Notes: a model not told the origin generated them from the sequence alone. A stretch of DNA of 64,000 nucleotides from Candidatus Terrybacteria bacterium RIFCSPHIGHO2_01_FULL_48_17 (GCA_001822835.1 MHSS01000004.1:7186-71185); one strand, 5' to 3'; positions 5,337 to 61,746 are shown, numbered from the stretch's first letter. Made by a program: numbers and translations.

Positions 5337-5350
5337 CATCACTCGTTGCC

Positions 5351-6956: not shown

Positions 6957-6963
6957 CATCAAC

Positions 6964-9235: not shown

Positions 9236-9241
9236 CTACTT

Positions 9242-9907: not shown

Positions 9908-9915
9908 TATATAGT

Positions 9916-26190: not shown

Positions 26191-28560
26191 ATGGTATCAT
26201 CACGCACTACGGCTATTGTATTAACAGGGGCGACGCTCGTCGTAGTGGTTTTCTTTTTCTTTTTCTCCCCCCGAACTTACACAGCAACGGCGACCGGAAC
26301 CCCCACGGGCCAATCCTTAACAACCGGAAACCCCTTGCTCGACACGGAACACTTCTTGCGTTCGACAATGTTTTCGGGGCTGCTTCCAAAAATTAACGAG
26401 CCGCATCGTGGCACATTCGGTGTCTCGCTCGGGGTTGAGCTTGGAGAAGATTGCGGCGGTGGAACGGAAACAACAGAAGGTGTTGGTCCTGTGTTTGATG
26501 GCGTTTCAGGCTGTAACGCCTGCCAACAAATTGCGCAATGTATCGGCAGTAAAACAGGCCACCAAGACCCCGCGTATCTATGGGATTCAACCACACAAAT
26601 CTGCGGCGTTGGCATCGAAACAGATGGGAGTACGGCAAATAGCTGTAAAGCGGGCGACGCATGCCTTGGAGTACCTATAATAGGTGGCTTCGACAGAGTA
26701 AAAGACGATGCAATAGCCATGGTGCTGAATGCAGAAACGCTTTTCCCCCGAAGTGCCGCCCCAGCAAAACTCTTACTCGCTTACACCTATGCGGTAAGCA
26801 AATGGAATCCTTTTGAAGGAGAGGGGCTTTATCCAACTGATCTGTGTGCTGCAGATAAAACGGCGTTGGAAGGATCAACTTTGTGCGGAGATCCGTTCGT
26901 AGACGGCGAGACAAAAACAATGGACATAGATGGCGACCTGGTAGCGGACGGCAAAGCGTGTCTTGCAATGCCGATTTCCAAAGATCCTGACGGCGCTGGC
27001 GCCCTATGCGGCGGGCGAATTGGAATTTCGCAAGTGCTTCCCACCATTTACGAAACCAACGGATTTCTTATCGGAACACTTACCGGAGATCCTCACCCAA
27101 ACCCGTGGAGCCAGCGCGACGGCCTCGGCGTTGCCGAATCACTCTTATCACTCAACGCATCGCTTTTTGATGAACCAACGTGTAACGCCGCGTGCGTTGC
27201 CGGGGGAAGGAGTATCGATACGTGCCTTACAGTATGCGCAACCGAAAAGGAGCGTTGTGCCATTCTTGACTCATTTTATGGGCCAGGTACCTGTCTTGCG
27301 CCGACGGCCGAACAAAAAATATTCGCCGATACAGTACAGCAATTTGAACCCGTTATGGAAAGCTTGCTCACCACGGGCGCATGTCCTGGCGCGGGAAGCT
27401 GTCAAGATATTCCCGGCTTCGACCGCTTCAATGAACTACGCGCCCTTGTTGACGAAATGGTACCTAAAGTAAAAACGCTATACGGATATGTAGTACGTCC
27501 CGAATACGTCCTTGCGGTTATGAAAATCGAATCGGGATGGAACCCCACGCTTAACCCCCTCCTGCGGTACTACTATACTCACAGCCCATTTACGGGCGGA
27601 CTGCTCTTAGGACAACTTCCGGCTTTCCAGGAGATATGTTCGGACCCAACCACAAGGGCTGAGGTTGAAGCGCAATACGGGGTTGAATTCGGAAAATGCG
27701 AAGATATGCCGGTATCTTCGGCCGGGGCAATGGGAATTGCCCAAGCCATGCCAACTACTTGGAGGGGCGTATTGCAACAAACCAATAACTTAAAGGATCT
27801 TACGGGAGACAATTATGATAATCCCTGGAACGACAGGCACGCAGTTGCTTTCGCAACATATTTCCTCGGCCAAAAGGTGGACGGCTGCGGCAGCGAAGAA
27901 AAAGCATCAGGCGCTTATTATTCCGTTGGCTGCACCGCACCCAATGAACATTACGAACGGGTAAAAACCGTTCTTCCTCTCATCGAAGACCTGTACGCCC
28001 AGGCGTGTTCTGTGCCCGGAGGAGATGGCTGTCCTCTCGTTATGCCGCCGTTTCCGCCAACGCCACCCACAACCGGCTGCTTACAACTCACCAGCGATTT
28101 CTGTCCCGCTGGCGGCTGTTTCTGTTATGCGGGAATTCACGAAGGCGTGGACATCGTAGGCGTTCGGGGGGAGCAGATCTATGCGCCGTTTGACGGAAGC
28201 GTTATAGATGTGATCGATGGTTGTATAGAAGGCGATGGAACATGCGGCGGAGGATGGGGAAACCACCTTGTGGTCAAACAGGACGCCACAAACTTCCATA
28301 TACTTTACGCGCACCTACAAGATATTCTGGTGCTTCCGGGAGAACACGTTACAAAAGGAAGGGTGCTTGGGCACGTGGACAATACCGGCCGTTCGGGTGG
28401 CGACCACCTCCATTTTGAAGTTAATACGAACGCAAATCCGCGAACTGACGACGTAGGCAAAGACGATCCAAGAAAATACTTTACCTGTATTCCTAAAGAG
28501 CCGACGTGTAAAGATTCCACCAAAGATGAATTTTGTCCGCCGACTGGAGAAACAAAATAA
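26191..28560 (+). CDS. Cys-rich secreted cell-wall hydrolase with lytic-transglycosylase-like (ESGWNP...GIAQAMP) and C-terminal M23 domains; VirB1-like by position
   Basis: N-terminal TM; M23 motif HEGVDIVG...GDHLHFEV; first gene of a 12-gene same-strand cluster. Confidence 0.7.
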   Translation: MVSSRTTAIVLTGATLVVVVFFFFFSPRTYTATATGTPTGQSLTTGNPLLDTEHFLRSTMFSGLLPKINEPHRGTFGVSLGVELGEDCGGGTETTEGVGPVFDGVSGCNACQQIAQCIGSKTGHQDPAYLWDSTTQICGVGIETDGSTANSCKAGDACLGVPIIGGFDRVKDDAIAMVLNAETLFPRSAAPAKLLLAYTYAVSKWNPFEGEGLYPTDLCAADKTALEGSTLCGDPFVDGETKTMDIDGDLVADGKACLAMPISKDPDGAGALCGGRIGISQVLPTIYETNGFLIGTLTGDPHPNPWSQRDGLGVAESLLSLNASLFDEPTCNAACVAGGRSIDTCLTVCATEKERCAILDSFYGPGTCLAPTAEQKIFADTVQQFEPVMESLLTTGACPGAGSCQDIPGFDRFNELRALVDEMVPKVKTLYGYVVRPEYVLAVMKIESGWNPTLNPLLRYYYTHSPFTGGLLLGQLPAFQEICSDPTTRAEVEAQYGVEFGKCEDMPVSSAGAMGIAQAMPTTWRGVLQQTNNLKDLTGDNYDNPWNDRHAVAFATYFLGQKVDGCGSEEKASGAYYSVGCTAPNEHYERVKTVLPLIEDLYAQACSVPGGDGCPLVMPPFPPTPPTTGCLQLTSDFCPAGGCFCYAGIHEGVDIVGVRGEQIYAPFDGSVIDVIDGCIEGDGTCGGGWGNHLVVKQDATNFHILYAHLQDILVLPGEHVTKGRVLGHVDNTGRSGGDHLHFEVNTNANPRTDDVGKDDPRKYFTCIPKEPTCKDSTKDEFCPPTGETK

Positions 28561-28565
28561 AATAT

Positions 28566-30476
28566 ATGGATACTCGTCACGCTCCACGCAATATCTTGCA
28601 ATATTTATTACTCGCCCTCGGCGGTGTAGTATTGCTTTCGGCAATGCTCGCGCTTGCATCACTTAAAGACGCTTCCAAACAAAACGTACGAGCCCTAACT
28701 CCTGAAGACATCTCCACGACGATAAACGGTATATTCAATACCGGCGACGCAAGCGCTATTACGGCTCTCGCGGGACCGGATGGGCAGATACTCGTTGGAG
28801 GCACGGTCCGTAGTGGTGGGTCGTTCGTTCCCAAGCTCGTATCACTCGAAGATGGTTCTGCCTCGAATCTTTCCTTCGGACTCAAAAACTTTTCAAGTGC
28901 TGCAGTAGAGTCGGTCGCATACGATGGCCAAACATGGCTTGTCGGTGGCGGAGATCCCTTTCTTAATCCAACATCATCGCCAAAACTCAATTCCTACGAC
29001 GGAAGCAGCTTTCAGGATTTGTCATCGTTGCTACAGAACTATAAAGGGTCAGCACAAGCGCTTGGAGGCAATGGATCATATTGGCTGATTGGCATCAACG
29101 GACTTCCCCCGTCCCAAGGCGGAGCGCTTGAAGCGGAAGTAGGGACAACAAGCACAGTGTTATTAAAATACGACGGCACAAATATTTCGGAGATCATCTC
29201 GTCTACAACAAAATCGGATCTCACTGGTGCCTGGATACGCGATATTGCGTGGAACGGGGAATATTGGCTCATCGCACTTGAAAGCGTGCCGCTTAGCGAA
29301 TCTTCTAACTTCCGTGGGCCGTACAAGAGCCGGCTTATGCGATATGATGGCACCACTCTTACGGAATTGACTGTTGGCAAATTTATTAACTACGCCGTCT
29401 TTGCGATCGGCTGGGATGGGGAGCGCTGGATTATTCCCGCCTTTGATAACATTACAAACCAAACGAGCTTCTGGTCTTATGACGGAAAAGCAATAGCACG
29501 GCTTTCCCTTGCCCTTCCTGACAACAAGGTTGTGTCTGCCTTAGCGTGGACGCGCGATAAATGGATTATTGCAACCACCAATGCAAATAATCTTCGCGAT
29601 AAAATCAGTCGAGACCTTACACAAGCAACAGACCTCACAAGGGATGCGGGTGAATTGTGGGAATACGATGGCGCGAACCTCAAAAATATTACCGTGCCTA
29701 CCGCGCTCCTTTTTGTGGAAGATATGGTATTCGACAATACTGCACAAAGTGCATATATTGGCGGCGCAAACTCGCAGGGACGCGTGGCGCTCTTATCTTT
29801 CGCAGTTCCCGCGGCACCGGAATTTCCCGATGGTACGCTCTTGCGTGCAGCAAACCGGCCTGAAGTATTCGTTATTTTTAAAAATAAGAAAAAGCACGTT
29901 CCCGACGCAAACATTTTCGGCTCATACGGCTATCGTTTCGAAAGCGTGCAAACGGTTGATGAGACAACGCTCAACCTTATTCCCGACGTGAAACTTATAT
30001 CAGCACCCGGGGATCCGCGGGTCTTCTTCCTTGACCGAGGTCAAAAACGATGGCTTCGGAATGAAACGGTGTTTGCAAGTTATGGTCTCCCGTGGGACGA
30101 GATATTATCGATAAACGCGACGGATCTTAGCGTATATCGCGACGCTCGCCTGCTCAAATCTCCAGGGGATGAACGCGTTTACTTCATCACAGGAAAAGGG
30201 CTCATCCACCACATTCCAAGCCCCGAGGCCTTTGTGTCTTATGGTAACAAATGGGAGGACATCGTTGGAGTAAGCATAGCAGAATTGCAGTCGTACGAGG
30301 TTGCCAATCTTGTCCGAAAGGCAGGCGATTTCCGCGTATATAAAGTACAGGATGGGGTAAAATATTGGGTACGGACATATGAGGCGTTTCAAAAGTTCGG
30401 ACTGGACCCAAGCAAGGTTTTGGAAATAAACGAAGTCGAATTCAACTCATATACCGAGGGCGCGCCCCTCAATTAG
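28566..30476 (+). CDS. secreted protein with WxxGxxWLI-type propeller-like repeats and four C-terminal tandem ~53-aa repeats
   Basis: Start at the MDTRH Met just after the upstream stop; repeats GDxRV(F/Y)...G.K..IP..EAF.SYG. Confidence 0.55.
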   Translation: MDTRHAPRNILQYLLLALGGVVLLSAMLALASLKDASKQNVRALTPEDISTTINGIFNTGDASAITALAGPDGQILVGGTVRSGGSFVPKLVSLEDGSASNLSFGLKNFSSAAVESVAYDGQTWLVGGGDPFLNPTSSPKLNSYDGSSFQDLSSLLQNYKGSAQALGGNGSYWLIGINGLPPSQGGALEAEVGTTSTVLLKYDGTNISEIISSTTKSDLTGAWIRDIAWNGEYWLIALESVPLSESSNFRGPYKSRLMRYDGTTLTELTVGKFINYAVFAIGWDGERWIIPAFDNITNQTSFWSYDGKAIARLSLALPDNKVVSALAWTRDKWIIATTNANNLRDKISRDLTQATDLTRDAGELWEYDGANLKNITVPTALLFVEDMVFDNTAQSAYIGGANSQGRVALLSFAVPAAPEFPDGTLLRAANRPEVFVIFKNKKKHVPDANIFGSYGYRFESVQTVDETTLNLIPDVKLISAPGDPRVFFLDRGQKRWLRNETVFASYGLPWDEILSINATDLSVYRDARLLKSPGDERVYFITGKGLIHHIPSPEAFVSYGNKWEDIVGVSIAELQSYEVANLVRKAGDFRVYKVQDGVKYWVRTYEAFQKFGLDPSKVLEINEVEFNSYTEGAPLN

Positions 30477-30480
30477 AAAC

Positions 30481-31413
30481 ATGAAACGTACGCTTATTAT
30501 TACAATCGGGGTTATTGTGGTCGGAGGGCTTGCGCTTGTCGGCGCATATTCCCTATTTCGCGGACCGACACTGGGAGTGCTTGTAAACGTATTGCGTTTT
30601 TTGGGAACACCGATTGCGCAAGAAGACACGGGAGCAACGGTTGAAGGGCCATCGTTCACAGAAGACCGTGATAGCGACGGCTTATCCGATGCCAAAGAAG
30701 AAATTTACGGCACAAACTCCGACCTCCCAGACACGGACGGCGATAACTTCACCGATGGCGCTGAAGTACGCAAGGGTTTTGACCCGAAAGTCGCCGGGCA
30801 AGGAAAAATTGCGGACAATCCGGAACTGATGCGAAATCTCACTATTGCCTATTTTGAATGGGCAAGGGAAACGTCAAACATCGAAGATCCGCAGCTTGCC
30901 GAACAGGGTATTCAAACATTTTTGATCAGCCGCAAACAAGACCGGCTCATTTTACCAACGGTTGAAGATAACGAGATTGTACGCACCGACGCCTCCGGAC
31001 CAGATGCCGTTAAAGCATACCTCGACGCCTTTGCTCAAGTAACCCTTCCCCCCGTAACCGCCTCGTACCTGGACCTTGCGGAAGGAAGTTTACAAGAAGA
31101 AACGCAAACCATTATTGATACGGTGGTTTTGGGGATCGATGCAACCTACGAGCAAATTCGCCGTATCCCAACGCCCCAAGAGGCAATTGAAGTGCAACGA
31201 GGGCAGCTTGCAACCATGAAAGCATTAAAGGAGCTTTTTTTGGATCTTAAAAGCGTCAGGCGGGATCCGGTAAAACTGATACGCGACATTTCCTGGGGTA
31301 ACGAACTTGTACTCAAATCAGCGGATATTGAGAAAAAACGCCAGGAACTTGGCTTAATTACAAATCCGGCATTTCAAAATAGTAATCAGGGGACAGGGGA
31401 CAGTAATCAGTAA
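30481..31413 (+). CDS. N-terminal TM + TSP3-like Ca-binding motif protein (DRDSDGLSD...DTDGDNFTDGAE)
   Basis: motif read directly; C-terminus encoded by heptamer repeats (QGTGDSNQ). Confidence 0.55.
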   Translation: MKRTLIITIGVIVVGGLALVGAYSLFRGPTLGVLVNVLRFLGTPIAQEDTGATVEGPSFTEDRDSDGLSDAKEEIYGTNSDLPDTDGDNFTDGAEVRKGFDPKVAGQGKIADNPELMRNLTIAYFEWARETSNIEDPQLAEQGIQTFLISRKQDRLILPTVEDNEIVRTDASGPDAVKAYLDAFAQVTLPPVTASYLDLAEGSLQEETQTIIDTVVLGIDATYEQIRRIPTPQEAIEVQRGQLATMKALKELFLDLKSVRRDPVKLIRDISWGNELVLKSADIEKKRQELGLITNPAFQNSNQGTGDSNQ

Positions 31414-31418
31414 AACAC

Positions 31419-32147
31419 ATGAAGCGGCGTATTCCTTTTTTCATAAAAACGATTCTTTTACTTGCGCTTTTTGGCATCGGCGCTGCGTTTGCCTCCCCAC
31501 AAAAAAACCAAGATGCTCTTGACGCGCAAAATGCTACAATAGATAGCGAAGCGGCTTTATTGCAAGAAGAAGAGGCCTTGGGAGCTGCCGCGACTAAATC
31601 GCAACAAGTGCGCGAACCCTTCCTTGCATCAATTCTCAATGCCGTGGGCGCGAAAGGGCAAAATGATACTCTAATCGGAACAAATGATGTTGCTGAATCA
31701 GAAATCACAAGCACTATTGGTTCCGACGCTACGGCGCTACAGCCCACGATTCAAGCACAGGCCATTGCAGAATATATCGTTGCAACGTCAAACCTTGGGG
31801 GCGATCTTGCGCCAAACCGCATGCAATCGGCCCTATCGCTTGCAAGCCAAGGAGATAAAAATATCCTACTGGACGTTGCCGGAGGATACCGAAAGCTCGC
31901 AGAGGCCTTTAACAAAGTTGCCCCTCCACCCGAACTTCAGCAAAACCACGAGGCGACAAAAGTATTGCTTGGGCGGTTCGCCGGATTTTTAGAAAATCTT
32001 TCATCGCTTCCTGCAACAGAAATTGAAGGTGCGTGGAAAAGCGGAGAGCGCAGCGCGATAACACAAGAAGCGGAGCGTTTAAATCAAGAACTGCGGGCAA
32101 TCGTAACACAATACAATGTTCAACTTCCCGTGGGAACGATCCCCTAG
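31419..32147 (+). CDS. secreted alpha-helical (Ala/Gln/Glu-rich) protein; VirB5/TrbJ-like position, speculative
   Basis: signal peptide, 242 aa, composition. Confidence 0.45.
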   Translation: MKRRIPFFIKTILLLALFGIGAAFASPQKNQDALDAQNATIDSEAALLQEEEALGAAATKSQQVREPFLASILNAVGAKGQNDTLIGTNDVAESEITSTIGSDATALQPTIQAQAIAEYIVATSNLGGDLAPNRMQSALSLASQGDKNILLDVAGGYRKLAEAFNKVAPPPELQQNHEATKVLLGRFAGFLENLSSLPATEIEGAWKSGERSAITQEAERLNQELRAIVTQYNVQLPVGTIP

Positions 32148-32159
32148 GACAAAAATTGC

Positions 32160-32300
32160 CCTAATTTCTAATTGCTCTAATTTGTCTAATCAAATCCCAA
32201 TGTCTAATACAAACAAGGTCAAAACATTTAAACATTAGAAATTCGGTTAAATTCTTTAGGTCAATTAGGTTAATTGGGTCAATTAGAAATTTAACATTCC
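32160..32300. promoter_or_regulatory. AT-rich intergenic region with three copies of AATTTCTAATT / AATTAGAAATT and direct repeat GTCAATTAG
   Basis: 32164-32174 forward, 32235-32246 and 32282-32293 reverse; the only sizeable gap inside the cluster. Confidence 0.5.
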
Positions 32301-32304
32301 TCTC

Positions 32305-34449
32305 ATGTTTTTCTGTAAGCAAATGAATGTTCTTGTTTTGCTTTTGCTCGCAATAATAACGGGTTTCTTTGTGGCGCATCCTGCTCATGCCGCTGTTCCT
32401 GTTGCGGTTGTGCAATTTGACGCCGGGACGGATTTTGAAACCAGCATTCTTTCGTTCCTTGGGGATCTTTTCGACAAACTAACCACAAAACAACTCGAAT
32501 CAAGTGCGGCTTTTGAACTCTTGAAAGTTGAAAAAGCGCGCGAGGACGTAAATAAGCTAATGCAAGAAGTGCAGGAAGAGCTTACGGATTATGGAATCGC
32601 CCTTGCTGTGCAGGACTACCGTGTTTCCAAAGATCCTCGCTGTCTTGAAGAACCCTCGACCTGTCCCACCGCAAATGAGCTTTCTATTTCTCCCTACAAA
32701 CAGTCGCGTATTATTAACAATGTATACGATTATATTTTTGAGGAGCCGCGTGAAAAGGCGCGTGTTTATACAATGTGCTATTTTAATCTTTTCATCTGGG
32801 ATCAGGCCGGGATACTTGATGACATGTTCGGTGATGCCGGCCTTATGGGAGCCCCTCAAGACCCTCCAGACGGTCTTTGTGCGATAGGGGGGAAAGATGT
32901 CACGCCAGGGGGGCCCACGAAATGCACGTATGGAAGCAAAAGCACGCGCCAAAGCATCAACAAACTTCGGGAAACCAGAGACGCAATGCTTTTTGGGCTT
33001 CGTCGAGCAAACTATTACCAACTCGATTACCCGCAAATATTCTTGTTTGGCGACTGGATGGGATATCCGGAAACGAGTAACGCCGCCATCCAACAGTATG
33101 GCCTTGCGGGACGGGGGGAATTCGATAGTGCGGAGATGCGCAAAATGTCGCTTGCTAATTGCATCCCGATTCTTGCAGATACATCCACGCCCCTTCTTCC
33201 AGATCCTGCGCTTCGTTTTCACAACGTTTCTTTAGAGCAGGTAATGGCGGTTCTGCCCTCGCTTATAGAGGGCACCGCAGGACGCCCACAATCAACGCTC
33301 ATTGAGCTCAGGGCGGTACAAGAGGATAAAAATAATATTGACGGCGTCGCCCGTATCGCCATCAGTAATATTTCACGGATTATCAATGAAACCCAAAAGG
33401 AGCGTGAGCTTACATATCTTGCCGGCCAAGGCATCAGGCCGGAGCGTTTATATCTTGAGCTCAACAACAAAGACGAAGCCGGCGAACCCATAGATCCTAT
33501 TCGCGGAGGGCCCGGTGATCTTATTCAATACGAATATGATACCGGCTACATTGTTGCCCCCGCAGTGGTGCTTCTACAAAAAATGCAAGCGGCAAACCAA
33601 GCAATGTTTGATCTAGCGCAAAAATCGTTTTTGTATCTTGATCCGGAAAGGACGTCGCTCTCCACGCTTAATCGGTATAATGTGGTCAGTAACGCAGACA
33701 CTTGTTATGACGATGATGGCAATACGTTCCCGTGTGCTTTTATCGGAGGGTTTTTCGAACGGCAAATTTGCAACGTAGTTCCTAATAATCCTTCCGGCAC
33801 TTATTGTTTCCCCGTCGATCCGTGGCTCAAACCACGCACTGCGTTCAGGTCGGCGCCCGACGCAAAACGGGTTGGCCCTAATTTTAAGACAAGCCAGGAT
33901 TCTCCATTGCCGATACTCTCAAGCGAAGGCGGGCTTCCTGCGCCTTGGGAGGATGAAAGCGCGTACGTGGCACTCGGAAACGAAAAAGTGGGGGCTGCGG
34001 CCGAAAGAGGAAGCCAACAATTCGATCTGAAATATAAGATAAGTGATTATAAATTCGATACACCTAAAGTTGCATATCCTGGTATTTTAGAAAGTGCTGG
34101 GTGGAACAAGGGCGACAACATCGGTTTAAAGGCGCTCGGGGCGGATTATGCCATCAACGACTGGTATGATCGTGTGTTTGAAATGTATGAACCATATCGT
34201 AACGAAAATACGCTTACATTTGGGCCAGGGGAGTGGACATGTTACATCGCAACGTGGTTCAGATTCCGACAAGTGGAGGGGAATCTTGTTCCAACTTTTG
34301 CCAGCACGCGCACCGTTATAGATATCGGCGAACGAACATTTAGTATTTTGCCGACCGCAAAAATTATACAAGGCCCGACAGTTGCGGACGCGCTCCAAAA
34401 TCAAATCGACGACTATTGCGGCGAGCGCCTATCCGATACTAGCTACTAA
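32305..34449 (+). CDS. large secreted protein (714 aa), hypothetical
   Basis: signal peptide ...AHPAHA-AVP; no motif. Confidence 0.5.
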   Translation: MFFCKQMNVLVLLLLAIITGFFVAHPAHAAVPVAVVQFDAGTDFETSILSFLGDLFDKLTTKQLESSAAFELLKVEKAREDVNKLMQEVQEELTDYGIALAVQDYRVSKDPRCLEEPSTCPTANELSISPYKQSRIINNVYDYIFEEPREKARVYTMCYFNLFIWDQAGILDDMFGDAGLMGAPQDPPDGLCAIGGKDVTPGGPTKCTYGSKSTRQSINKLRETRDAMLFGLRRANYYQLDYPQIFLFGDWMGYPETSNAAIQQYGLAGRGEFDSAEMRKMSLANCIPILADTSTPLLPDPALRFHNVSLEQVMAVLPSLIEGTAGRPQSTLIELRAVQEDKNNIDGVARIAISNISRIINETQKERELTYLAGQGIRPERLYLELNNKDEAGEPIDPIRGGPGDLIQYEYDTGYIVAPAVVLLQKMQAANQAMFDLAQKSFLYLDPERTSLSTLNRYNVVSNADTCYDDDGNTFPCAFIGGFFERQICNVVPNNPSGTYCFPVDPWLKPRTAFRSAPDAKRVGPNFKTSQDSPLPILSSEGGLPAPWEDESAYVALGNEKVGAAAERGSQQFDLKYKISDYKFDTPKVAYPGILESAGWNKGDNIGLKALGADYAINDWYDRVFEMYEPYRNENTLTFGPGEWTCYIATWFRFRQVEGNLVPTFASTRTVIDIGERTFSILPTAKIIQGPTVADALQNQIDDYCGERLSDTSY

Positions 34450-34458
34450 CGGAGGTTT

Positions 34459-36465
34459 ATGAAGTCCTCGCACAAAACAATCCTGGTTTTCGCGCTAACA
34501 TTGCTGATTCTTTCCATATTCCTTCCGCATCATGCAGACGCGTTTCTTGGCGTAGATTTGCCGGATCCCCGCGAAGTGGCGCTTAAAATGTTCGATGCGA
34601 TACTTACGATTATTCGAAACGCCGCCGCATCCTTACTGCATATTGCAGCACAATTTCTCAAATATGCCTTGGTTGATTTAACGGGCTCAATGCCCTTTTA
34701 CAATAACTTTTTTGTGCAGGCCGGCTGGCAAGCAGTAAGGGACTTCGCGAATCTTGGATTCGTCCTTTTCTTGCTTGTAGCCGCAGTAGCCACCATTTTG
34801 GATCTTCAAAATTATGGCTGGAAACGTATTATACCCCGTCTCATTATCGTGGCTCTTTTGGTAAACTTTAGTTTGCCGCTCGTCGCTTTTGCCATTAATA
34901 TTGCAAACCTCATGATGGGCTTTTTCACAGTGAACGTCGCGTCAGAAGCCGGATATTCGGATATCGGGGCGGCACTCATTGCTGGCTTTCGTGTGGGTGA
35001 TATTACCGCGGACCCGTCGCTGGAAAGCTTAAAAATAGCAAACGGGGGAGGAGATATAAGTACGACCATGACATCAATCATCAATAATATCACCGCCATT
35101 ATTTTCTTTCTCATCGCGGCAGTTATTCTGTTTTGGCTTGCGATGTACCTTATCGTGCGCATTATTGCGCTCTGGGTATTGATAATCCTTTCACCCTTGG
35201 CAATTGTGGCGAGCATCTTTCCGGCAACGCAAAGCATGTTTAGCCGGTGGCTGCACCAGCTCACGCATTGGACGTTTTTTGGAATTGCTGCTGCTTTTTT
35301 CTTATGGCTTGCCACGTTGCTCATCTTTACGGTCAATACGCAAAATTGGGCGGATATCCAGCTCGTTGGAGGGGCAAACTATCTTTCGCTGACATCAAAA
35401 GCCGGCCTCCTCTTTTCCTACGCAACCACCGCGGTTTTCTTGGTCTTGGCGTTACAAACGGCAAAAGGGGCTTCGCAGGGATTTGCACAAATGGTGGTAA
35501 ATACTGCCGGAGGATTGGCAATGGGTGCGGTCGGATTTGCTGCAGGTGCGGCAGGACGGCCGGCATTGCGTCGAGCCAGACGAGCCGTTGCTGAAAGCAA
35601 GACGGTCCGCGGGTTTGCAGAAGGAACGGGGAAGGCCTTGGAACGCATTCGAAACGTACCTATTTTGGGCGGGGCAACACGAGGGGCGCGAGAAGGACTT
35701 ATGGGTCTCGCTGGAGCCGGTCCAATGAAGGACGAAACGGAAAAGGAATACAAACGACTCAAAGCATCAAATCTCTCGCCCATACAAATTGCACGGCTTG
35801 CTTCTAACACCGACAGCCAGGGGCTAAAAGTTGCGACTGGGAGGGCGCTTAGCGAGACGAACGCATATGATAAGGCAACTACCGACGATGAGAGACATAT
35901 GGTACGGCGCCTGCAAAACCAAGCTTATGTTATTGCTGAATCTACCGGCAATACTAAAGAGATTGAAAATCTTGCCTATAACGATAAAGGGTATGCGGAA
36001 CGCGCACGCGAACGAGGGATTGGATATTTCAAAGACCTCAGCGATGAAGAAATCAATAAAAGATTTGTGGGAGAGCATACGTCTTCCGAAATCCTGCAAC
36101 AGCCGGAAACCGCCTTCAACATGTCTGCTGCGAATGTCCGAGGAGTAGCACAGCGTGGTTCGCCCAAACAACGGAAGGCCTTGGCCGAAGCAATTTTGGG
36201 AACGGAACAAAAGCCCGTCACAGAACCGCCCCAAGGTGTCAGCGAAGAGCAATTCCGCTTTATGCAACAACTCGTGCAATTAAATGCCGCCCTTGCAGAA
36301 ACCATTGGGCGCACCAAGGCATTCGGCCGCGCGCAAGCGGAAGTTGCAGCGGCACAAGAAGCAATCGGAGGCGATGTCACCGACATACGTCAGCAATTAC
36401 AAACACCGCCGCAAGAACCGAAGCAGGAACCGGAAGGGACAGACAAAGAAAATAAAAATGTGTAA
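34459..36465 (+). CDS. polytopic membrane protein (6-7 TM) with a hydrophilic C-terminal domain; VirB6/TrbL-like
   Basis: TM topology and size; follows the secreted proteins and precedes VirB3/VirB4-like genes. Confidence 0.45.
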   Translation: MKSSHKTILVFALTLLILSIFLPHHADAFLGVDLPDPREVALKMFDAILTIIRNAAASLLHIAAQFLKYALVDLTGSMPFYNNFFVQAGWQAVRDFANLGFVLFLLVAAVATILDLQNYGWKRIIPRLIIVALLVNFSLPLVAFAINIANLMMGFFTVNVASEAGYSDIGAALIAGFRVGDITADPSLESLKIANGGGDISTTMTSIINNITAIIFFLIAAVILFWLAMYLIVRIIALWVLIILSPLAIVASIFPATQSMFSRWLHQLTHWTFFGIAAAFFLWLATLLIFTVNTQNWADIQLVGGANYLSLTSKAGLLFSYATTAVFLVLALQTAKGASQGFAQMVVNTAGGLAMGAVGFAAGAAGRPALRRARRAVAESKTVRGFAEGTGKALERIRNVPILGGATRGAREGLMGLAGAGPMKDETEKEYKRLKASNLSPIQIARLASNTDSQGLKVATGRALSETNAYDKATTDDERHMVRRLQNQAYVIAESTGNTKEIENLAYNDKGYAERARERGIGYFKDLSDEEINKRFVGEHTSSEILQQPETAFNMSAANVRGVAQRGSPKQRKALAEAILGTEQKPVTEPPQGVSEEQFRFMQQLVQLNAALAETIGRTKAFGRAQAEVAAAQEAIGGDVTDIRQQLQTPPQEPKQEPEGTDKENKNV

Positions 36466-37407: not shown

Positions 37408-37860
37408 TTGAGTGTGCAAGTCAAAGTTCCCAAATTCATTGATATTGAAGATAAAGTTATTTTTGGCTTAACCTGGCGCCAATTTTTATTCTTGGGCGTA
37501 GGTGGCGGAGTCGGCATTGTTGCGTTCTATGTTTTAGTACAACCCTTAGGAACAGCAATCGGTGTTGTTTCTATGACCATTGGTGCAATCTTTGCGTTAG
37601 TCAAAATAAACAACCGCCCCATGCATATATTTGTATATTCATTGTGGAACTATTTTTTTAACCCACGCCAATACACATGGAAAAAAGAAGCGACCGCGGC
37701 AAGGACAGCGAAAGTGACCAAAATCACAAAAAAGGAGACGCCGGCAACTCCCAAAACCATAACTCCGGAACGACTAAAACGCCTTTCGGTATTGCTAGAT
37801 ATCCAAGGACAAAAACAATCTGATGCCAATGTCAAAGTCCAAAGCTCAAATGCCAAATAA
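37408..37860 (+). CDS. PrgI/VirB3-like small membrane protein
   Basis: N-terminal VPKFIDIEDKVIFGLTWRQFLFLGVGGGV followed by two TM helices, about 150 aa, located before the VirB4 genes. Confidence 0.55.
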   Translation: MSVQVKVPKFIDIEDKVIFGLTWRQFLFLGVGGGVGIVAFYVLVQPLGTAIGVVSMTIGAIFALVKINNRPMHIFVYSLWNYFFNPRQYTWKKEATAARTAKVTKITKKETPATPKTITPERLKRLSVLLDIQGQKQSDANVKVQSSNAK

Positions 37861-40497: not shown

Positions 40498-40824
40498 ATG
40501 AACGAAGAGGAGTATACTGGAAACGAAGAGGAGGAAGAGCTTACACAACGCCAAGCGCTCGCTCAAGAGCGCGGCGACGCACAAACAGCAGGGCACTATT
40601 TAAAACAACAAGCGCAACAACAGGCAGTGCGCGCTGGAATGCAAATGGCAAAACAAGTGGTAAGACGTGTTGTGGTACAAGCGGCAATTCGAGGCATCAT
40701 CATACTGCTTACCAATCCTGTCGCGCTAGTTATAGAAGGCGTTATTTTGCTTATCATTATCGTGGTTCTTATCGTAATATACGGCGGATTCTATATCCAA
40801 GAAGGGGCCTCCCAAATTTTATGA
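40498..40824 (+). CDS. small membrane protein with acidic N-terminus and a 35-aa hydrophobic hairpin
   Basis: starts 5 nt after the VirB4 stop; overlaps the next gene by 4 nt. Confidence 0.45.
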   Translation: MNEEEYTGNEEEEELTQRQALAQERGDAQTAGHYLKQQAQQQAVRAGMQMAKQVVRRVVVQAAIRGIIILLTNPVALVIEGVILLIIIVVLIVIYGGFYIQEGASQIL

Positions 40825-41906
40825 AGAGGAAAATCTCCTATAGTTATCACAGGCTACTGCTTTGGTGTATAGGCGCTTTTATGGCAATGGCGATTCTTCC
40901 CTTTGTCGCCAACGCTATGTTGCCTGCAGACGGCGGTCTTGGTGGCGTGGGAGCCCCGGGTCAAAGTCAAAACATCAGCAGCCCTCGTCCGAAACTCGAA
41001 GAGGGTCTTGAGCTTCCTCTCCCCGGCGCCCCTGATTTTTCAACCGGCGATCCTGCTGACATTATCGGCTGGTTCTTTTTCTTTACGATGGGCATAGTCG
41101 GGATCCTGGCGCTTATTATGTTGGTTGTCGGGGGAGTGCAATTCACCGCTTCTGCCATTGATCCCGAAGCACGAACCCAAGCACGTAATCGGATACGAGC
41201 AGCCCTTACCGGCCTTTTGCTTGCACTCGTTTCATTTGTGCTTCTCTATACGCTCAATCCAGATCTTGTCAATTTGCGTAGCCCCTCGCTTCCGTGTGTT
41301 TCGTGTGCTTGCCTTGATAGCACGCGAGCGGCTCCCGGACTGAATGTAAATAATTGCGTACAATCAGATCAAGCGGCCTATAGTACGGGCATCCGTGAAA
41401 CAGGAGCGTTTAATACCGACCCCTGTTTGACCTCTGCGATCGCAAGTATTGATCCTAATAGATTAAAGCTCTTGGACGACGCCGGACGCACAGCCGAATA
41501 CGCGAGGGCGTCGGCTGCAAAGGGATGCGGATTTGTTTTTATTGCGGACGATGACAAAACCAATACCACGTGTGCGGCCTATTGCATGCAGAAAAAGGCA
41601 GATAGTTGTGACTATCGCAACGAGCCGGGGTGTAGTTGTAAATCAATCTATGAGCAAACAAAAAACTGGGCATGCAAAACCATGGGTCTCAATACCGTAT
41701 GCAATGAAGAAAAAGACAGCCCCGATGATTCCCAACTTTTCGGATGCCCGCTCCTTGGTTCGTATGTCGAATACGCGACAAATCTCGGCGGAGATTACGA
41801 TGCCTGTAAGTGCGCATCTACAGTAACATGTGCGGATGACGAGGTTATCTCGCTCGTGAAGGATACATTTAAGGAATTGCCGGGCTGGGCGGGTGGCTGC
41901 AACTAA
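40821..41906 (+). CDS. VirB2/TrbC-like pilin module (signal peptide + 2 TM) fused to a C-terminal domain of about 210 aa with 20 Cys
   Basis: cleavable signal ...VANA, hydrophobic pair IIGWFFFFTMGIVGILALIMLVVGG / LTGLLLALVSFVLLY separated by a charged loop. Confidence 0.4.
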   Translation: MKRKISYSYHRLLLWCIGAFMAMAILPFVANAMLPADGGLGGVGAPGQSQNISSPRPKLEEGLELPLPGAPDFSTGDPADIIGWFFFFTMGIVGILALIMLVVGGVQFTASAIDPEARTQARNRIRAALTGLLLALVSFVLLYTLNPDLVNLRSPSLPCVSCACLDSTRAAPGLNVNNCVQSDQAAYSTGIRETGAFNTDPCLTSAIASIDPNRLKLLDDAGRTAEYARASAAKGCGFVFIADDDKTNTTCAAYCMQKKADSCDYRNEPGCSCKSIYEQTKNWACKTMGLNTVCNEEKDSPDDSQLFGCPLLGSYVEYATNLGGDYDACKCASTVTCADDEVISLVKDTFKELPGWAGGCN

Positions 41907-43189
41907 GGAATCGTAGCCAGCACGACCACAAAGAGAACGGCTAAGTCGTTTTTAAGAATTGGGGTATCGATAAGGCCGTGGAGAATAATCGCAGCTAGAG
42001 CTGCGAAGGGAATAGGGAATAGGGAATAGGGAATAGACGAGGAATGGCGAAGCGCTAGGAGCGCTTTTTTTGTTATGACAAAAAGGAGCCATAAAAAACC
42101 GGAGAGTCCCAAAAGGCCTGCGGACAACCAGATAGCAAGAAAAATGTTATGTGGTTGCGGCACTGCCCACTCAAGGTATGGAGGAAATTGCGGCTGCACG
42201 CTAAGGAAATAATACTGAAATGCCCCGGGACCAATACCAAAAAACCAATGGTCTTTTAAAATTTCAAGTGCGGCTTGCCATACCATAATGCGTGAAGCAA
42301 AAGAGGAACGAGCGCCGGTATCGAAAACAATAAAGGCCGCAGTTGTTGCGACAACCACCAAGAAAAGTGCGGCAAAAACTGCTTTAAGGGGAATCTTGCG
42401 TGTAAGCAATAAAAGCGTAAGCGCGCCAAGCGCGGCGCTTATGATGCCTCCCGATGATTGTGTAAACAAAAGGGCTATAGCGATAACGCCAAACGCTATA
42501 CCAAAACCAAAGCGTATTTTTTTAGTTGTCTCAAAGAGGAACAATCCAAGCGCAACGGCAAGCGCTGGGGCCAATACCATCGCAAGATGGTTTGGCGACA
42601 AAAAAAATCCGCGCAAGCGCATATCATACGTTACAAAATCGCCACCAAACAGGGCGCCAATAAGCGCACCGCTTGCTTGAAGCGCAGCCCCCACAACAAC
42701 TGCCGCCAAAAACAGTTTTTTGTTTCGGACATCTTGCTGCACAAACGCATACGCCGCAACGCCGAATAAAACAGGTAGGATAAAAATGCTTTTTAACTCT
42801 CCCAGTGCCCGCAACTGCAACCAAAAACCAGCCGTAATCGTAGCGAAGGCGGCGCCCAAAATAATTAAACTAGCCGGGGCTATCCACCATGGCAGGGAAA
42901 GCTCAATTTTTTTGCGCAACCACAAAGCGAAAAACCCCGCAAGGGCCCCCATCACCAAAAGATCAAGAGCGTTTGTACGCAGCGCGCCTTCGCGGATACG
43001 GATAAGATAAAGCGGCGTTAATAAAATAACCACCACAACGGCATCGCGCGGCCTCAACAAAGTAAGCACAAGGAACAACCCCGCTCCTGCTGCAACCACT
43101 ATAAGCTCAAGCGGGGTGGTGGCGATTATTTCCATAAAAAGAGAGTTGTGCCGTGCCAGCCGCAAAACCAGCCAGCACAACAAATACAA
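41903..43189 (-). CDS. O-antigen ligase/Wzy-like polytopic membrane protein; contains heptamer-encoded segment SSIPYSLFPIPF (42007-42037)
   Basis: 10+ TM helices; GGGAATA x3 on the opposite strand. Confidence 0.55.
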   Translation of the reverse strand: MYLLCWLVLRLARHNSLFMEIIATTPLELIVVAAGAGLFLVLTLLRPRDAVVVVILLTPLYLIRIREGALRTNALDLLVMGALAGFFALWLRKKIELSLPWWIAPASLIILGAAFATITAGFWLQLRALGELKSIFILPVLFGVAAYAFVQQDVRNKKLFLAAVVVGAALQASGALIGALFGGDFVTYDMRLRGFFLSPNHLAMVLAPALAVALGLFLFETTKKIRFGFGIAFGVIAIALLFTQSSGGIISAALGALTLLLLTRKIPLKAVFAALFLVVVATTAAFIVFDTGARSSFASRIMVWQAALEILKDHWFFGIGPGAFQYYFLSVQPQFPPYLEWAVPQPHNIFLAIWLSAGLLGLSGFLWLLFVITKKALLALRHSSSIPYSLFPIPFAALAAIILHGLIDTPILKNDLAVLFVVVLATIP

Positions 43190-44420
43190 ACAACACCTGT
43201 GGCGAGTAGAGCGTTGTTTCTACTAAAGATTGGGCGGCAAACACGGCGATTGATGCGGCAAAGCCATGTGCCAAAAGCGTTTTTTGTTTAACAAACGCCA
43301 AAAAAGCAGCGTAAAGCATACCGACCCAGAACATAAGGCCAAATATGCCAAGCTCGGATGCCATCTCAAGATAGGTATTGTGCGCATTGGTAGGAATACG
43401 AAAAGCAAGTTGGGGCCCAAGAGTCGCCGCAAGCCCTCCGAGCCCAACGCCCAATAACGGATGTTTAAAGAAAATGGTTGTGGTATCCTGCCACAACAAA
43501 AGCCGCGCGGCAAACGACCCTTCGTTCACATCGAAACTCGCGGCGAAACGATCCCGAAAGGGTGCAATAAACAAAAACAGAACAAAAAGGAGAAGCGCTA
43601 CAGAAAATACCATAGCGCGCATGTGACCAGAAAAATTCCGCCATCGTAACACCGCAAACACGAAAAATCCGACAAGCACCGCCGCGTACCCGCCGCGGGA
43701 AAACGATAGGATAATTGCAGCCACCATTAGTATCATTGCAAAAATTGCGAAGGGGCGCGCGGTGCGCGACATGCTGCCTAAAAGACCGGCGGTGCAAAAA
43801 AAAGCTATGCCCAAAAAAAGCGAAAGCGTGTGAGGATCGGAAAAAGGGAAAAAGGCGCGCAGTATCGGGCCTCCCACATCAACAAAAAAACTTGGAAATT
43901 GAAAAACGGCTTCTGCGGTGGTGTTTCCCCACAAAAAAGGGGCTACGTTTTTTATTGCAGCCACCACCGTTTCCCCTCCAAACAAAAACCCAAGCCCTGC
44001 TTGAAAAACCGCAAGGAGCGCCGCCATAAAACCCCCAAACGCAATACCCGCAGCAAAAAAACGTGCGCGCGCCGCCCAAACCGCCGCAAGCCATAAAACC
44101 GGGAAAAATCCTGCTAAAAAAATAAATTTTCGAACTGCAAATGCCGGTGCTTCCGCCCAAAATAGCGACAATCCAGCAACTGCCAAAAATCCCGTAGCTG
44201 TCCAAAATACGGGGTGTACGGGCACGGGAAACGTCCGTTTCCATAAGAAAAGAACCGCGGTGCATCCATAAATCCCCACAACAAGGATTCGAATAGTTGC
44301 AAGATCCCATGAGCCGATATTGGCTGCCGGCAATATAGGGACAGTCGCCAAAAGCGCAAAAAAGGAAAACTGCAGAAATTTCATATTTTTAGCGCACTGC
44401 ATGCGCTCGCAAAAGATCAA
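43107..44420 (-). CDS. O-antigen ligase/Wzy-like polytopic membrane protein
   Basis: topology; overlaps the neighbour by 83 nt, so start may be downstream. Confidence 0.55.
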   Translation of the reverse strand: MIFCERMQCAKNMKFLQFSFFALLATVPILPAANIGSWDLATIRILVVGIYGCTAVLFLWKRTFPVPVHPVFWTATGFLAVAGLSLFWAEAPAFAVRKFIFLAGFFPVLWLAAVWAARARFFAAGIAFGGFMAALLAVFQAGLGFLFGGETVVAAIKNVAPFLWGNTTAEAVFQFPSFFVDVGGPILRAFFPFSDPHTLSLFLGIAFFCTAGLLGSMSRTARPFAIFAMILMVAAIILSFSRGGYAAVLVGFFVFAVLRWRNFSGHMRAMVFSVALLLFVLFLFIAPFRDRFAASFDVNEGSFAARLLLWQDTTTIFFKHPLLGVGLGGLAATLGPQLAFRIPTNAHNTYLEMASELGIFGLMFWVGMLYAAFLAFVKQKTLLAHGFAASIAVFAAQSLVETTLYSPQVLFVFVVLAGFAAGTAQLSFYGNNRHHPA

Positions 44421-49435: not shown

Positions 49436-50548
49436 ATGCTGATTTCTGTCGAACGCAATCAATTTCTTAAGGGGCTTTCAATTATTGAACACGCTATTGG
49501 GCGTTCTCCAACGCTTCCCGTGTTAGGATACGTTCTTTTAAAAACCGTAGATAATATTCTTGAACTTACCGCAACAAATCTTGAACTTTCTATTACCACG
49601 CGCATTTCCGCAAAAATTCAAACCCCCGGCGTTATAAGCGTTCCTTATCGAACACTTGGAGGACTTCTACACAATTTATCTCATGCAATAATTGAGTTAA
49701 AAGGAGTTCGTGAAACACTGGAAATTAATACACCTGCACAAAAGGCAAAAATTCAAGGAGGAGCAGTTAATGAATTTCCACTTATTCCGGACGTCAAAAC
49801 AAAAAACATTATTCGCTTCCAAAATCCGCATACTTTAACAGAAGACCTTGATTCGGTATTGCCTGCGGTGGCAGCAAGTGATGTACGGCCTGAACTTAAC
49901 GGAGTGCTTTTGGAGGTAGGGGAGGAGGAAACGGTTTTTGCAGCAACCGATACCTTTCGTTTAGCCGTAAGATCCACGAAAGACGTAGAGGCAAAAGAGC
50001 CAAAAGTTGCAATTCTACCAAAACGAACCGCGGAGGTTCTTTCAAAACTTATGCGGGATGCTAAACACGTAGACGGACACCTTTCTCTAACCCAAGCTCT
50101 CTTTACGGACGGCACCACCAGCATAGTGTCACGTTTAATTGAAGGGTCCTTCCCTGATTTTTCCGCAATCCTTCCGAAACAAGAAAGCGCAGCAATTCGT
50201 CTTTCACGCGAGGAATTCTTACAGGAATTAAATGCCGCTTCGCTTTTTACCAGTCGCCTCAACGATGTTTCGCTTACAATTCAACCACAAAAAGCAAATC
50301 TTTTGATTTCCGCACACAACCCCGACATAGGAGAATATGAAACGGCAGTAAAAGGGGCTGCACATGGGCAAAAAATAACCCTTGCATTTAATTATCGTTA
50401 TCTCATTGATGGCCTTGCCGGATTCAGCGGCGACCAACAGATTGATTTTGTGTTTGTAGGAGAAGGCAAGCCCGGCCTTATGCGGCCGGCCAACACAAAA
50501 GACGAGCGGAATGTATATCTTGTAATGCCCATCCGTACAAACGCGTAG
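49436..50548 (+). CDS. dnaN: DNA polymerase III beta sliding clamp
   Basis: 370 aa, three-domain clamp pattern. Confidence 0.95.
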   Translation: MLISVERNQFLKGLSIIEHAIGRSPTLPVLGYVLLKTVDNILELTATNLELSITTRISAKIQTPGVISVPYRTLGGLLHNLSHAIIELKGVRETLEINTPAQKAKIQGGAVNEFPLIPDVKTKNIIRFQNPHTLTEDLDSVLPAVAASDVRPELNGVLLEVGEEETVFAATDTFRLAVRSTKDVEAKEPKVAILPKRTAEVLSKLMRDAKHVDGHLSLTQALFTDGTTSIVSRLIEGSFPDFSAILPKQESAAIRLSREEFLQELNAASLFTSRLNDVSLTIQPQKANLLISAHNPDIGEYETAVKGAAHGQKITLAFNYRYLIDGLAGFSGDQQIDFVFVGEGKPGLMRPANTKDERNVYLVMPIRTNA

Positions 50549-59859: not shown

Positions 59860-60058
59860 AGAGGAGCGTTTGGCGAGTTGCCGGCCCCGGCTCCGGTCGG
59901 GGAGGGGATATCCTGGCGGATGGGCCATCAGGCCTTGGCTCGATGGTTCCTCGAGGATATCCTTCCTCGTGGTTCCCAAGCCAAGAGATTTTCCGGCAAC
60001 TCGCCGAGCGTTTCTTTCGATTCGTCCCTCTTTGAGGGGCGATCTTTATTTTATTTTG
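59860..60058 (+). ncRNA. candidate structured small RNA of about 190 nt (6S-like architecture: about 20-bp terminal helix closing a structured core), ending in an intrinsic terminator
   Basis: 5' AGCGTTTGGCGAGTTGCCGG pairs with 3' CCGGCAACTCGCCGAGCGTT; internal GGATATCC palindromes; terminator CCCTC-TTTG-AGGGG + TTTATTTTATTTT. Confidence 0.4.
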
Positions 60059-61746
60059 AAAAGCTCCTCCATATCTTCAAGTGGTCCGGTGACGCGTTCA
60101 AGTTCTGCCGTATCGGTAGTGCCATCCAAGACGCGCAGCAGGCCATCCTGTTGCATGGTTACCATTCCACGTTCGGCTGCGGTCTTGCGAACCTCAAAAG
60201 TGGATGGCTTTTTAAGTGTAAGCGATTCCATTGCAGAGTCCATGGGGAATAATTCAAAGATGCCTACGCGGCCGCGATAACCGGTATTGTGGCATGCGGC
60301 ACATCCTTTTGCGTAAAAGAGCTCAAGCCCCTTTGAAAAGGTCGGCATAAGTGGCGCGGGAAGGCCCGCAAGAGCTTTTTTGATTCGACTCGTCATTTCC
60401 TCATTTAGGGTGGCGCTCGTTGCGCATTCTTTACAAAGACGGCGCAACAGCCGTTGTCCTATAATAAGCGAGAGTGCGGGCGCGATGGTTTCTGGTTTTG
60501 CGCCAAGCTCAATAAGTCGCGGTATGGCTCCTGGGGCATCGTTGGTATGGAGCGTTGAGAAAACGAGATGCCCGGTAAGTGCTGCTTGTAACGCGATGTT
60601 TGCGGTTTCTATATCACGCACCTCTCCTACCAAAACATAGTCCGGATCCTGCCGTACGATCGAGCGCAGCCCAACCGCAAATGTGTATTTAGCTTCTGTA
60701 TCCACTTGCGTCTGTTCAATTCCCCGAATGCGGTACTCGATAGGATCTTCGATCGTAATGATTTTTACTTTTGGCGTGGTGACGTGGCGTACCAAGGCAT
60801 ACAGCAGAGTAGTTTTTCCGGATCCGGTGGGACCGGTGGTAAGAATCATTCCATTTGGTTGTTTTAACCCTTCCCGAATTTTTTCCAAAAGATCTTGCCG
60901 CAGCCCAAGCTCCTCCAGGCTTAACAGGTTTCGCGGGTTTAGAATCCGAAGCGTTACAAACTCCCCGTATTTTCCCGGAAGGGAAGATGCGCGGATTTCA
61001 ATATCTTGTTGTTCTACATGGATGGTGAAGCGGCCATCTTGCGCGCGATCTCGTACATTAAGTTTTAATCCCGCAAGAAGTTTAAGGCGTTCCAGCACCA
61101 GGTTATACATTTCTTGTTCAAGCTCGGCGATGTCTTGCAAAATACCATCTATACGGAGACGAACAAGCGATTTTTTTTCTTGGGGTTCGATATGGATATC
61201 TGAGGCATCGGCAAAAAGCCCTCCTGCCAAAACAAGATTCACCGCAACTCCAAAATCTCGCGGTTCGATCTGTTGCAACAGTTTACGCAGCTCATCAAGC
61301 GCATTCAGTTGTTTTTTAAACGCTGCGATATCCGCGCTTGAGATGCTTACTTCTCCAGAAATGCGTTGGCCCCCACGAGCATATTTTTCATATTCTGAAA
61401 GAAGTTCCAAAAAACCACTTTGCGAGATAACGGAAAGTTTTGGTTTAAGGCCCTGTTGTTCAAGCTCCTCCAAAAACTCTTTTGTTTCTTTACGTTCGGG
61501 ATTGGGGGTTATGATACCAATGCCATGGTCTTCTTGGCTATACGGGAAAGCCAGGGCTTGCGTAAGCTTCTCTTTTGGATAACGGGACAACACCATGCTG
61601 TCGATAGAGACGCTTTCGTGTTGTGTAAAGGGAAGCTTGAGGCGTTGGGCAAGCTCTCGACCCCGTTCTTCCTCTTCGCGCCTGTGTAAAGCCGAGATTT
61701 TTTTTGCAACTGCATTTCGATCGTTCGTGCCGAATGTGTCTGGCAT
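60046..61746 (-). CDS. pilB: GspE/PilB-family secretion or type IV pilus assembly ATPase
   Basis: Walker A GPTGSGKTTL, Asp box, Walker B, His box, tetracysteine CxxC...CxxC. Confidence 0.9.
   Translation of the reverse strand: MPDTFGTNDRNAVAKKISALHRREEEERGRELAQRLKLPFTQHESVSIDSMVLSRYPKEKLTQALAFPYSQEDHGIGIITPNPERKETKEFLEELEQQGLKPKLSVISQSGFLELLSEYEKYARGGQRISGEVSISSADIAAFKKQLNALDELRKLLQQIEPRDFGVAVNLVLAGGLFADASDIHIEPQEKKSLVRLRIDGILQDIAELEQEMYNLVLERLKLLAGLKLNVRDRAQDGRFTIHVEQQDIEIRASSLPGKYGEFVTLRILNPRNLLSLEELGLRQDLLEKIREGLKQPNGMILTTGPTGSGKTTLLYALVRHVTTPKVKIITIEDPIEYRIRGIEQTQVDTEAKYTFAVGLRSIVRQDPDYVLVGEVRDIETANIALQAALTGHLVFSTLHTNDAPGAIPRLIELGAKPETIAPALSLIIGQRLLRRLCKECATSATLNEEMTSRIKKALAGLPAPLMPTFSKGLELFYAKGCAACHNTGYRGRVGIFELFPMDSAMESLTLKKPSTFEVRKTAAERGMVTMQQDGLLRVLDGTTDTAELERVTGPLEDMEELFKIK

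Follow-up and report, generated by a model that had tools for sequence, protein, structure and literature searches.

What is a conjugation-type pilin doing with a cysteine-rich domain of some 200 residues at its C-terminus? The question is raised by one gene in a 64,000-nucleotide stretch of the Candidatus Terrybacteria genome RIFCSPHIGHO2_01_FULL_48_17 (GCA_001822835.1, MHSS01000004.1:7186-71185), the whole of which was analysed and is referred to here as the window. The gene lies at the end of a type IV secretion system (T4SS) cluster of this ultra-small groundwater bacterium. An earlier reading by a model from the sequence alone (the original prediction) had described its product as a VirB2/TrbC-like pilin fused to an extracellular domain of 20 cysteines, and had put it forward as a host- or DNA-contacting element. 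The answer that we favour, and regard as probable though far from certain, is that the gene encodes a VirB2-like subunit of a chromosomal, conjugation-derived Patescibacteria T4SS, whose external, disulfide-rich head is the host-contacting surface.

Pilin module and cysteine-rich head of the Terrybacteria protein

The predicted open reading frame (ORF) is genuine and encodes 361 amino acids (aa) on the forward strand. The annotation at NCBI begins further downstream and gives 341 aa. The 361-aa start is better supported, because it restores the positively charged n-region, agrees with the starts of the orthologues (M1 and K2 are invariant) and overlaps the stop codon of the upstream gene (ATGA); the longer form is also called by other sources (P0139). 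An identical protein is found on 11 contigs, and independently assembled sequences forming three orthologue clusters have the same architecture. On this agreement, the fusion between pilin and head was judged not to stem from an assembly or frameshift artefact. The mature protein has 329 aa, following a type I signal peptide that ends in PFVANA (cleavage at A-N-A, before M) and whose cleavage region can be aligned across orthologues. As anticipated, this VANA-type signal peptide is followed by two hydrophobic helices and a short charged loop. By hydropathy, the hydrophobic stretches span aa 78-114 and 123-152, with the loop IDPEARTQARNRIR between them. A type IV pilus pilin was considered and rejected, the signal peptide being of type I, with neither a class III signal peptide nor a prepilin peptidase site (G followed by F/M-x-x-x-E, cut after the G).

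Its profile matches place the protein clearly and securely within the pilin family of Patescibacteria. The Pfam family PF18895 (T4SS_pilin) matches the full protein with 33 bits and the module alone with 36.2 bits (gathering cut-off 26.6). Moreover, the design of that family is present, comprising a signal peptide, two helices, a short loop and YTLNPDLV at aa 143-150 (the T-(I/L)-N-P-D-L-V motif), and the N-tail motif L-x-L-P-L-P-G resembles the 'LLxPLPG' of the consensus of short family members. The small size of the described PF18895 members (a precursor of about 100-145 aa) is not shared. A family profile hidden Markov model was built from 89 aligned relatives, all of which match PF18895; it recovered the gene at E 8e-31 and no second ORF in the window. 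This is the sole pilin-family ORF in the 64 kb, where short pilin paralogues were also sought and none found. With the alignment of these relatives, AlphaFold2 (AF2) modelled the module as a helical hairpin with a predicted local distance difference test score (pLDDT) of ~90. The NCBIfam model NF045849, a pilin-like conjugal transfer protein of Mycoplasma integrative and conjugative elements (ICEs), also aligned (7e-07, 28.8 bits, compared to an equivalog cut-off of 40). Homology of the PF18895 family to VirB2 is a weaker claim, argued from modest profile evidence together with topology and gene context. Almost half of the relatives (44/89) touch PF04956 (TrbC/VirB2) at E<1, weakly (best 4.7e-05), the next most frequent family being touched by 15/89.

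The cysteine-rich nature of the C-terminal domain stood up to inspection; the count of 20 did not. There are 19 Cys in the whole protein. One of them, C16, belongs to the signal peptide; the other 18 are spread over aa 159-360 and include the CxxC, CxC and CSC motifs originally noticed (C159-xx-C162-x-C164, C271-S-C273 and C329-K-C331). At 18 Cys in 207 residues, the domain reaches 8.7% compared to 0.75% across the window's 54 remaining ORFs, an enrichment far above chance (binomial P ~5e-14). Given a signal peptide and two membrane helices, the C-terminus comes to lie on the outer side with or without signal peptide cleavage, and the distribution of net charge (loop +2, N-tail -4, C-domain -9) agrees, so the extracellular placement of the domain is upheld. 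Within the operon, Cys are concentrated in secreted products (34 in the wall hydrolase, 18 in the pilin head), and the cytoplasmic and membrane parts of the T4SS, that is the VirB6-like protein (668 aa), a 286-aa protein, PrgI, the TrsD-like protein and VirB4 (593 aa), contain none.

When aa 150-361 were compared by phmmer with 1.84 billion representatives, three clusters were returned, namely the protein itself and two clusters of orthologues only. The orthologues derive from independent groundwater assemblies. Identity between orthologues falls from 75-83% at the junction between module and head, through 56-71% in the hairpin, to 32-38% in the head. Among the four orthologue sequences 14 Cys are invariant, and all lineage-specific changes in Cys come in twos. 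C202 and C236 are jointly lost in P0003, in which an insertion also brings two additional Cys; C271 is confined to the window protein, where it is accompanied by C360; and in P0018 C351' is present along with C360. Such paired gain and loss indicates structural disulfides, and the pattern predicts specific pairs, C202-C236 and C271-C360 among them. We infer about nine disulfides in a C-domain folded outside the cell.

Extended pilins in other Patescibacteria

Further database matches share the pilin module alone and carry different Cys-rich extensions. The survey covered 80 species-level Patescibacteria genome loci, these being the best matches to the module, and an extension was defined as more than 100 aa after NPDLV. 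By this definition 69 of the 98 pilin-family ORFs are extended. At least one extended form was present in 57/79 loci, and short and extended forms occurred together in only 2. The extensions contain 4.6% Cys compared to 0.61% in neighbouring ORFs, and the number of Cys is even in 60 of the 69 extended ORFs (p 2e-10). A set of 75 extensions resolved into 43 BLAST clusters. That extended forms are present in dozens of genomes at the species level, whose labels name several different candidate phyla, is robust. The fusion of a pilin to a Cys-rich domain had been thought unusual. It is so only relative to classical VirB2/TrbC, as most of the sampled family members are extended and their extensions are mostly Cys-rich.

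The position and content of the additional domain vary. In some members the Cys-rich part is N-terminal to the hairpin, which is also the outer side (P0006 with 22 Cys and P0012 with 20 Cys). One extended pilin contains dockerin/EF-hand modules (L036, 2967-4799), another has a weak match to NlpC/P60 (L047, 5752-7458) and a third a weak match to SLT (P0005). In 44 loci a VirB4 homologue was located upstream and in the same orientation, and 27 of the 48 pilin ORFs found there are extended.

The surrounding T4SS cluster

The pilin gene closes a 15.7-kb run of forward-strand genes separated by gaps of no more than 157 bp (Table 1). The run opens with a wall hydrolase (SLT plus M23), followed by four secreted proteins without a family, the TrbL/VirB6-like protein, the 286-aa protein, PrgI, the TrsD-like protein, the VirB4-like ATPase, a 108-aa protein with two transmembrane (TM) helices and finally the pilin, which is translationally coupled to the 108-aa gene. 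VirB4, PrgI/VirB3, TrsD, VirB6 (just under its cut-off) and a wall hydrolase are thereby found in one cluster of MPF_FATA-like composition. This is the chromosomal MPF_FATA-like Patescibacteria T4SS described by Quinonero-Coronel et al. 2025 (PMC12102498), in which VirB2-like pilins are found near virB4, close to dnaA and with the relaxase absent; RIFCSPHIGHO2_01_FULL_48_17 (Terrybacteria) was part of their dataset. Among the scanned ORFs of the window, no match to relaxase or coupling protein (T4CP) families was found, and DNA contact specifically, one of the two roles first suggested for the head, is therefore disfavoured.

Homologues of the TrsD-like protein were present in 39 of 85 fetched loci, largely overlapping the 49 loci with a VirB4 homologue, and from its profile matches the protein looks like a split-off N-domain of VirB4. 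The 647-, 310-, 242- and 714-aa proteins had no BLAST homologues in the 85 loci and are therefore lineage-specific genes of the T4SS cluster. Only L001-L004, the four loci with the P0003 orthologue, contained homologues of the 108-aa protein. By BLAST, the pilin C-domain showed no significant similarity to the operon's two other secreted Cys-rich proteins, one of which is the hydrolase.

Beyond the pilin gene, the opposite strand carries two O-antigen-ligase-like genes, a flippase, jag and yidC, after which come dnaA and dnaN. The arrangement of the Wzy_C pair is also kept in the orthologous locus L001. Synteny was seen on a 14-kb contig bearing an orthologue, in the order 96-aa ORF, pilin, two Wzy genes, flippase, Jag, YidC, RnpA, dnaA and dnaN.

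Three further features of the window were noted. At a surface-protein locus (7034-10932, forward strand), genes for a sortase and a CAP-domain protein (cysteine-rich secretory protein family) accompany the one for a 733-aa DUF11/CARDB/SpaA-like protein, which has a C-terminal anchor. A PilB/T2SSE-type ATPase (60046-61746, reverse strand, 3e-108) shows that the 64 kb with the T4SS also encode either a type IV pilus or a system like type II secretion. A free-standing LAGLIDADG-type ORF (6223-6870, forward strand) lies between tRNA-Lys (5264-5337) and tRNA-Leu (6873-6957), and neither an rRNA nor an intron RNA family was detected near it.

Table 1. Features of the T4SS cluster, the pilin gene and its parts, and the downstream genes, in window coordinates.
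Feature	Position	Strand	Remarks
VirB1-like wall hydrolase (SLT + Peptidase_M23), first operon gene	26191..28560	+	signal/TM start; 34 Cys (4.3%)
Four consecutive secreted/anchored proteins (647, 310, 242 and 714 aa)	28533-34449	+	no Pfam/NCBIfam match except TSP3-type calcium-binding repeats (310-aa protein)
VirB6/TrbL-like polytopic membrane protein	34459..36465	+	Pfam TrbL 9e-05, 22.8 bits, slightly under the 25.9 cut-off; ~9 hydrophobic segments
PrgI family protein (VirB3-like)	37408..37860	+	Pfam PF12666, 4.4e-12
TrsD-like protein, 222 aa	37965..38633	+	NCBIfam VirB4_plasma 3.6e-11 (model positions 130-232); TrsD 0.0025
VirB4-like ATPase, 593 aa	38712..40493	+	Pfam P-loop_TraG 6.6e-24; AAA_10 1.6e-12
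108-aa protein, two TM helices	40498..40824	+	acidic Gln-rich N-terminus; stop overlaps pilin start (ATGA); no family match
Pilin-head gene	40821..41906	+	ATG start; 361 aa
Sec-type signal peptide, aa 1-32	40821..40916	+	MKRK n-region, hydrophobic core, VANA cleavage motif; from sequence and hydropathy
Acidic low-complexity N-tail of the mature protein, aa 33-77	40917..41051	+	AF2 pLDDT 50-59, without secondary structure; net charge -4
VirB2-like pilin module, aa 78-150	41052..41270	+	helix 1 (78-113), short positive loop, helix 2 (115-145), NPDLV (146-150)
Junction NLRSPSLPCVSCAC, aa 151-164	41271..41312	+	best-conserved stretch among orthologues
Orphan Cys-rich ectodomain, aa 159-361	41295..41903	+	18 Cys, 14 invariant in four orthologues
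Two tandem Wzy_C (O-antigen ligase-like) genes	41903-44420	-	converge on the pilin gene; the first overlaps the pilin stop codon by 4 bp
dnaA	47838-49232		~6 kb from the pilin gene
dnaN	49436-50548		

Proposed role, rival explanations and known systems

If the favoured reading is right, Sec would export the protein and the hairpin would sit in the membrane with both ends outside. The head would fold and oxidise outside the cell, and VirB4 would, as for VirB2, extract the hairpin and pass it to the stalk or filament of the T4SS. With each subunit built in, another rigid head, stabilised by oxidation, would be exposed on the outer face, and together the heads would form an exposed surface that contacts the host and determines specificity. 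We propose that host specificity would explain why the heads are unrelated in sequence between lineages. Extended to the group as a whole, the idea becomes tentative, and we would not bet on it: many Patescibacteria may build the filament or outer channel of their T4SS from hairpin subunits with fast-evolving, disulfide-knotted heads, whose polymorphism would set the host cell chosen for attachment or feeding, with the Terrybacteria gene as one orphan allele.

Several observations weigh against a VirB2-like subunit with a host-contacting head. The window protein itself had no PF04956 match at E<=1. A profile of the candidate phyla radiation (CPR) pilins was compared by hhalign with genuine VirB2/TrbC, represented by five sequences (Ti VirB2, verified at 100% identity in the plasmid record, and four annotated TrbC/VirB2); the hairpin aligned in register throughout, but weakly (E 0.009, probability 4%), and the comparison with the single VirB2 was also weak. 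Foldseek against the PDB found generic helical hairpins only, and a PDB sequence search with the pilin-module profile retrieved nothing relevant. The claim of a T4SS pilin-like N-terminal module is therefore retained in part, for PF18895 is matched above its cut-off and the gene lies directly downstream of VirB4, whereas the likeness to classical VirB2/TrbC is weak in the profile comparison and the structural search was unspecific. The C-domain had no match in Pfam, NCBIfam or PDB sequences, and so no homologue of known function, and its structure was not confidently modelled (AF2 of the full protein with 3 homologues, mean pLDDT 41, C-domain ~30). A role of the head in adhesion, at a tip or in host contact is something that we infer. 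No Dsb- or VKOR-type oxidoreductase was found among the ORFs of the 64-kb window. The figures from the survey may over-represent extended forms, since the 80 loci were picked by similarity to the module, and outside the window roughly one in two extended genes of the pilin family does not adjoin VirB4. A profile search of a word-indexed protein database gave short pilins of 76-144 aa for all of its top 120 hits; this search omitted the query protein itself, so its length distribution is biased and was not used for frequencies. Finally, if the helical parameters of the F pilus applied, heads of 22 kDa borne by all subunits would be packed tightly. Given such packing and a mature subunit of 329 aa, compared to ~70 aa for VirB2, a homopolymeric pilus is uncertain.

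The size of the subunit and the extended genes lying away from VirB4, together with the resemblance of some extensions to wall hydrolases or dockerins and the normal absence of pili in T4SS of the Gram-positive type (PMC12102498, PMC12857230), favour a membrane-anchored surface protein that is never polymerised. Here the hairpin would be a two-helix anchor or a static part of the stalk at the VirB6 platform, and the head would act at the cell's own envelope in a structural, wall-binding or enzymatic capacity. We consider this possible, albeit unlikely. The pilin gene is tightly coupled to VirB4 both in the window operon and in the orthologous locus, and the hairpin is more conserved than the head. 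Moreover, as the only pilin-family gene in the window, it has to supply the VirB2-like part if the apparatus needs one.

The junction invites another explanation, in which a pro-protein is cut between LRSPSLP and CVSC, and the C-domain is either trimmed away during pilin maturation or released as an effector or toxin acting on the host. C-terminal residues are indeed trimmed from RP4 TrbC during maturation, the junction is the most conserved stretch of the protein (at the 75-83% identity given above), and the extensions are polymorphic across lineages in the manner of toxin and effector domains. However, the conserved part of the junction holds three invariant Cys of the head domain itself, no protease gene is adjacent, a 200-aa domain with nine disulfides would be a costly piece to discard, and neither Pfam nor NCBIfam gave a toxin or immunity signature. 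On balance such processing appears improbable. Least probable is that the Cys bind metal (Zn or Fe-S) in a possibly cytoplasmic domain instead of forming disulfides, as might be suggested by the CxxCxC and CxC motifs, the lack of a visible Dsb-like gene in the window and the low-oxygen groundwater inhabited by many such organisms, since the signal peptide, the two TM helices and the charge bias put the C-terminal end outside, His is absent from the domain, gains and losses of Cys are paired and their counts even in most extended relatives, and the cytoplasmic proteins of the operon avoid Cys entirely.

Should the tentative idea for the group as a whole be borne out, such filaments would represent an architectural class of conjugation-type pilus that is so far undescribed, with a design analogous to that of type IV pili. 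The head-bearing form also widens a VirB2-type pilin concept limited until now to minimal 70-residue hairpins. Patescibacteria make up a large share of bacterial diversity, and a life spent attached to host cells is the rule among those in cultivation. For the only tractable species, this lifestyle depends essentially on the T4SS and its pilins. As the exposed surface of the apparatus, a polymorphic, disulfide-rich head would offer a tangible molecule to which host recognition and host range might be ascribed, a sequence marker with which lineages and habitats could be compared, and a soluble, expressible domain usable as bait to identify the hosts of uncultivated lineages. The cluster type and its VirB2-like pilins have already been published (2023-2025). 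In the searchable literature on Patescibacteria VirB2-like pilins, which are described there as small and in arrays, no mention of large or Cys-rich extensions was found; pilins with heads, together with their disulfide signature and polymorphism, seem to have gone undescribed.

Among known systems, VirB2 (Ti), TrbC (RP4) and TraA (F) share with the window protein the signal peptide, the two-helix hairpin with a short cytoplasmic loop, the external position of both ends and the clustering with VirB3- and VirB4-like genes. They differ in having a mature length of ~70 aa and no globular domain, and some are cyclised or acetylated. The pilin-like protein of Mycoplasma ICEs (NF045849, Mbov_0395 family) is likewise comparable, its 80-position hairpin model matching aa 89-142 of the window protein. 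That system is also monoderm and, judging by adjacent locus numbers (Mbov_0395 pilin-like, Mbov_0397 VirB4), of MPF_FATA type; the model, however, has no C-terminal domain. The major pilins of type IV pili are similar in design only, in that a hydrophobic helical core bears a globular, disulfide-stabilised head forming the filament surface. They are non-homologous, with a single long helix rather than a hairpin and with PilB rather than VirB4 as the assembly ATPase.

The T4SS adhesins VirB5/TraC, CagL and PrgB resemble the head in its proposed role as the surface-exposed part that contacts the target. Unlike the head, they are separate proteins and not pilin fusions, and neither Pfam nor NCBIfam gave the window protein a match to an adhesin family at the thresholds applied. 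One study reports no PrgB-like adhesin in Patescibacteria (PMC12102498), which leaves the role of host contact vacant.

The closest counterparts are the Patescibacteria PF18895 pilins of Southlakia epibionticum and TM7x. In the former, a homologous T4SS and the pilin array SEML1_0014-0019 are essential for epibiotic growth (PMC10633639), and in the latter a 'Sec-secreted array' of VirB2-like pilins has been described (PMC10633639, PMC12102498, bioRxiv 10.1101/258137). These belong to the same family as the window protein and have the same signal peptide, hairpin and NPDLV, and the MPF_FATA-like cluster that encodes them likewise lies on the chromosome close to dnaA, includes VirB4, PrgI and VirB6 and lacks a relaxase. 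However, they are short (the SEML1_0017-0019 genes, from the only system studied by experiment, are 381-417 nt) and occur in tandem arrays of 2-11, whereas the Terrybacteria window has a single gene whose product carries a 200-aa, 18-Cys head.

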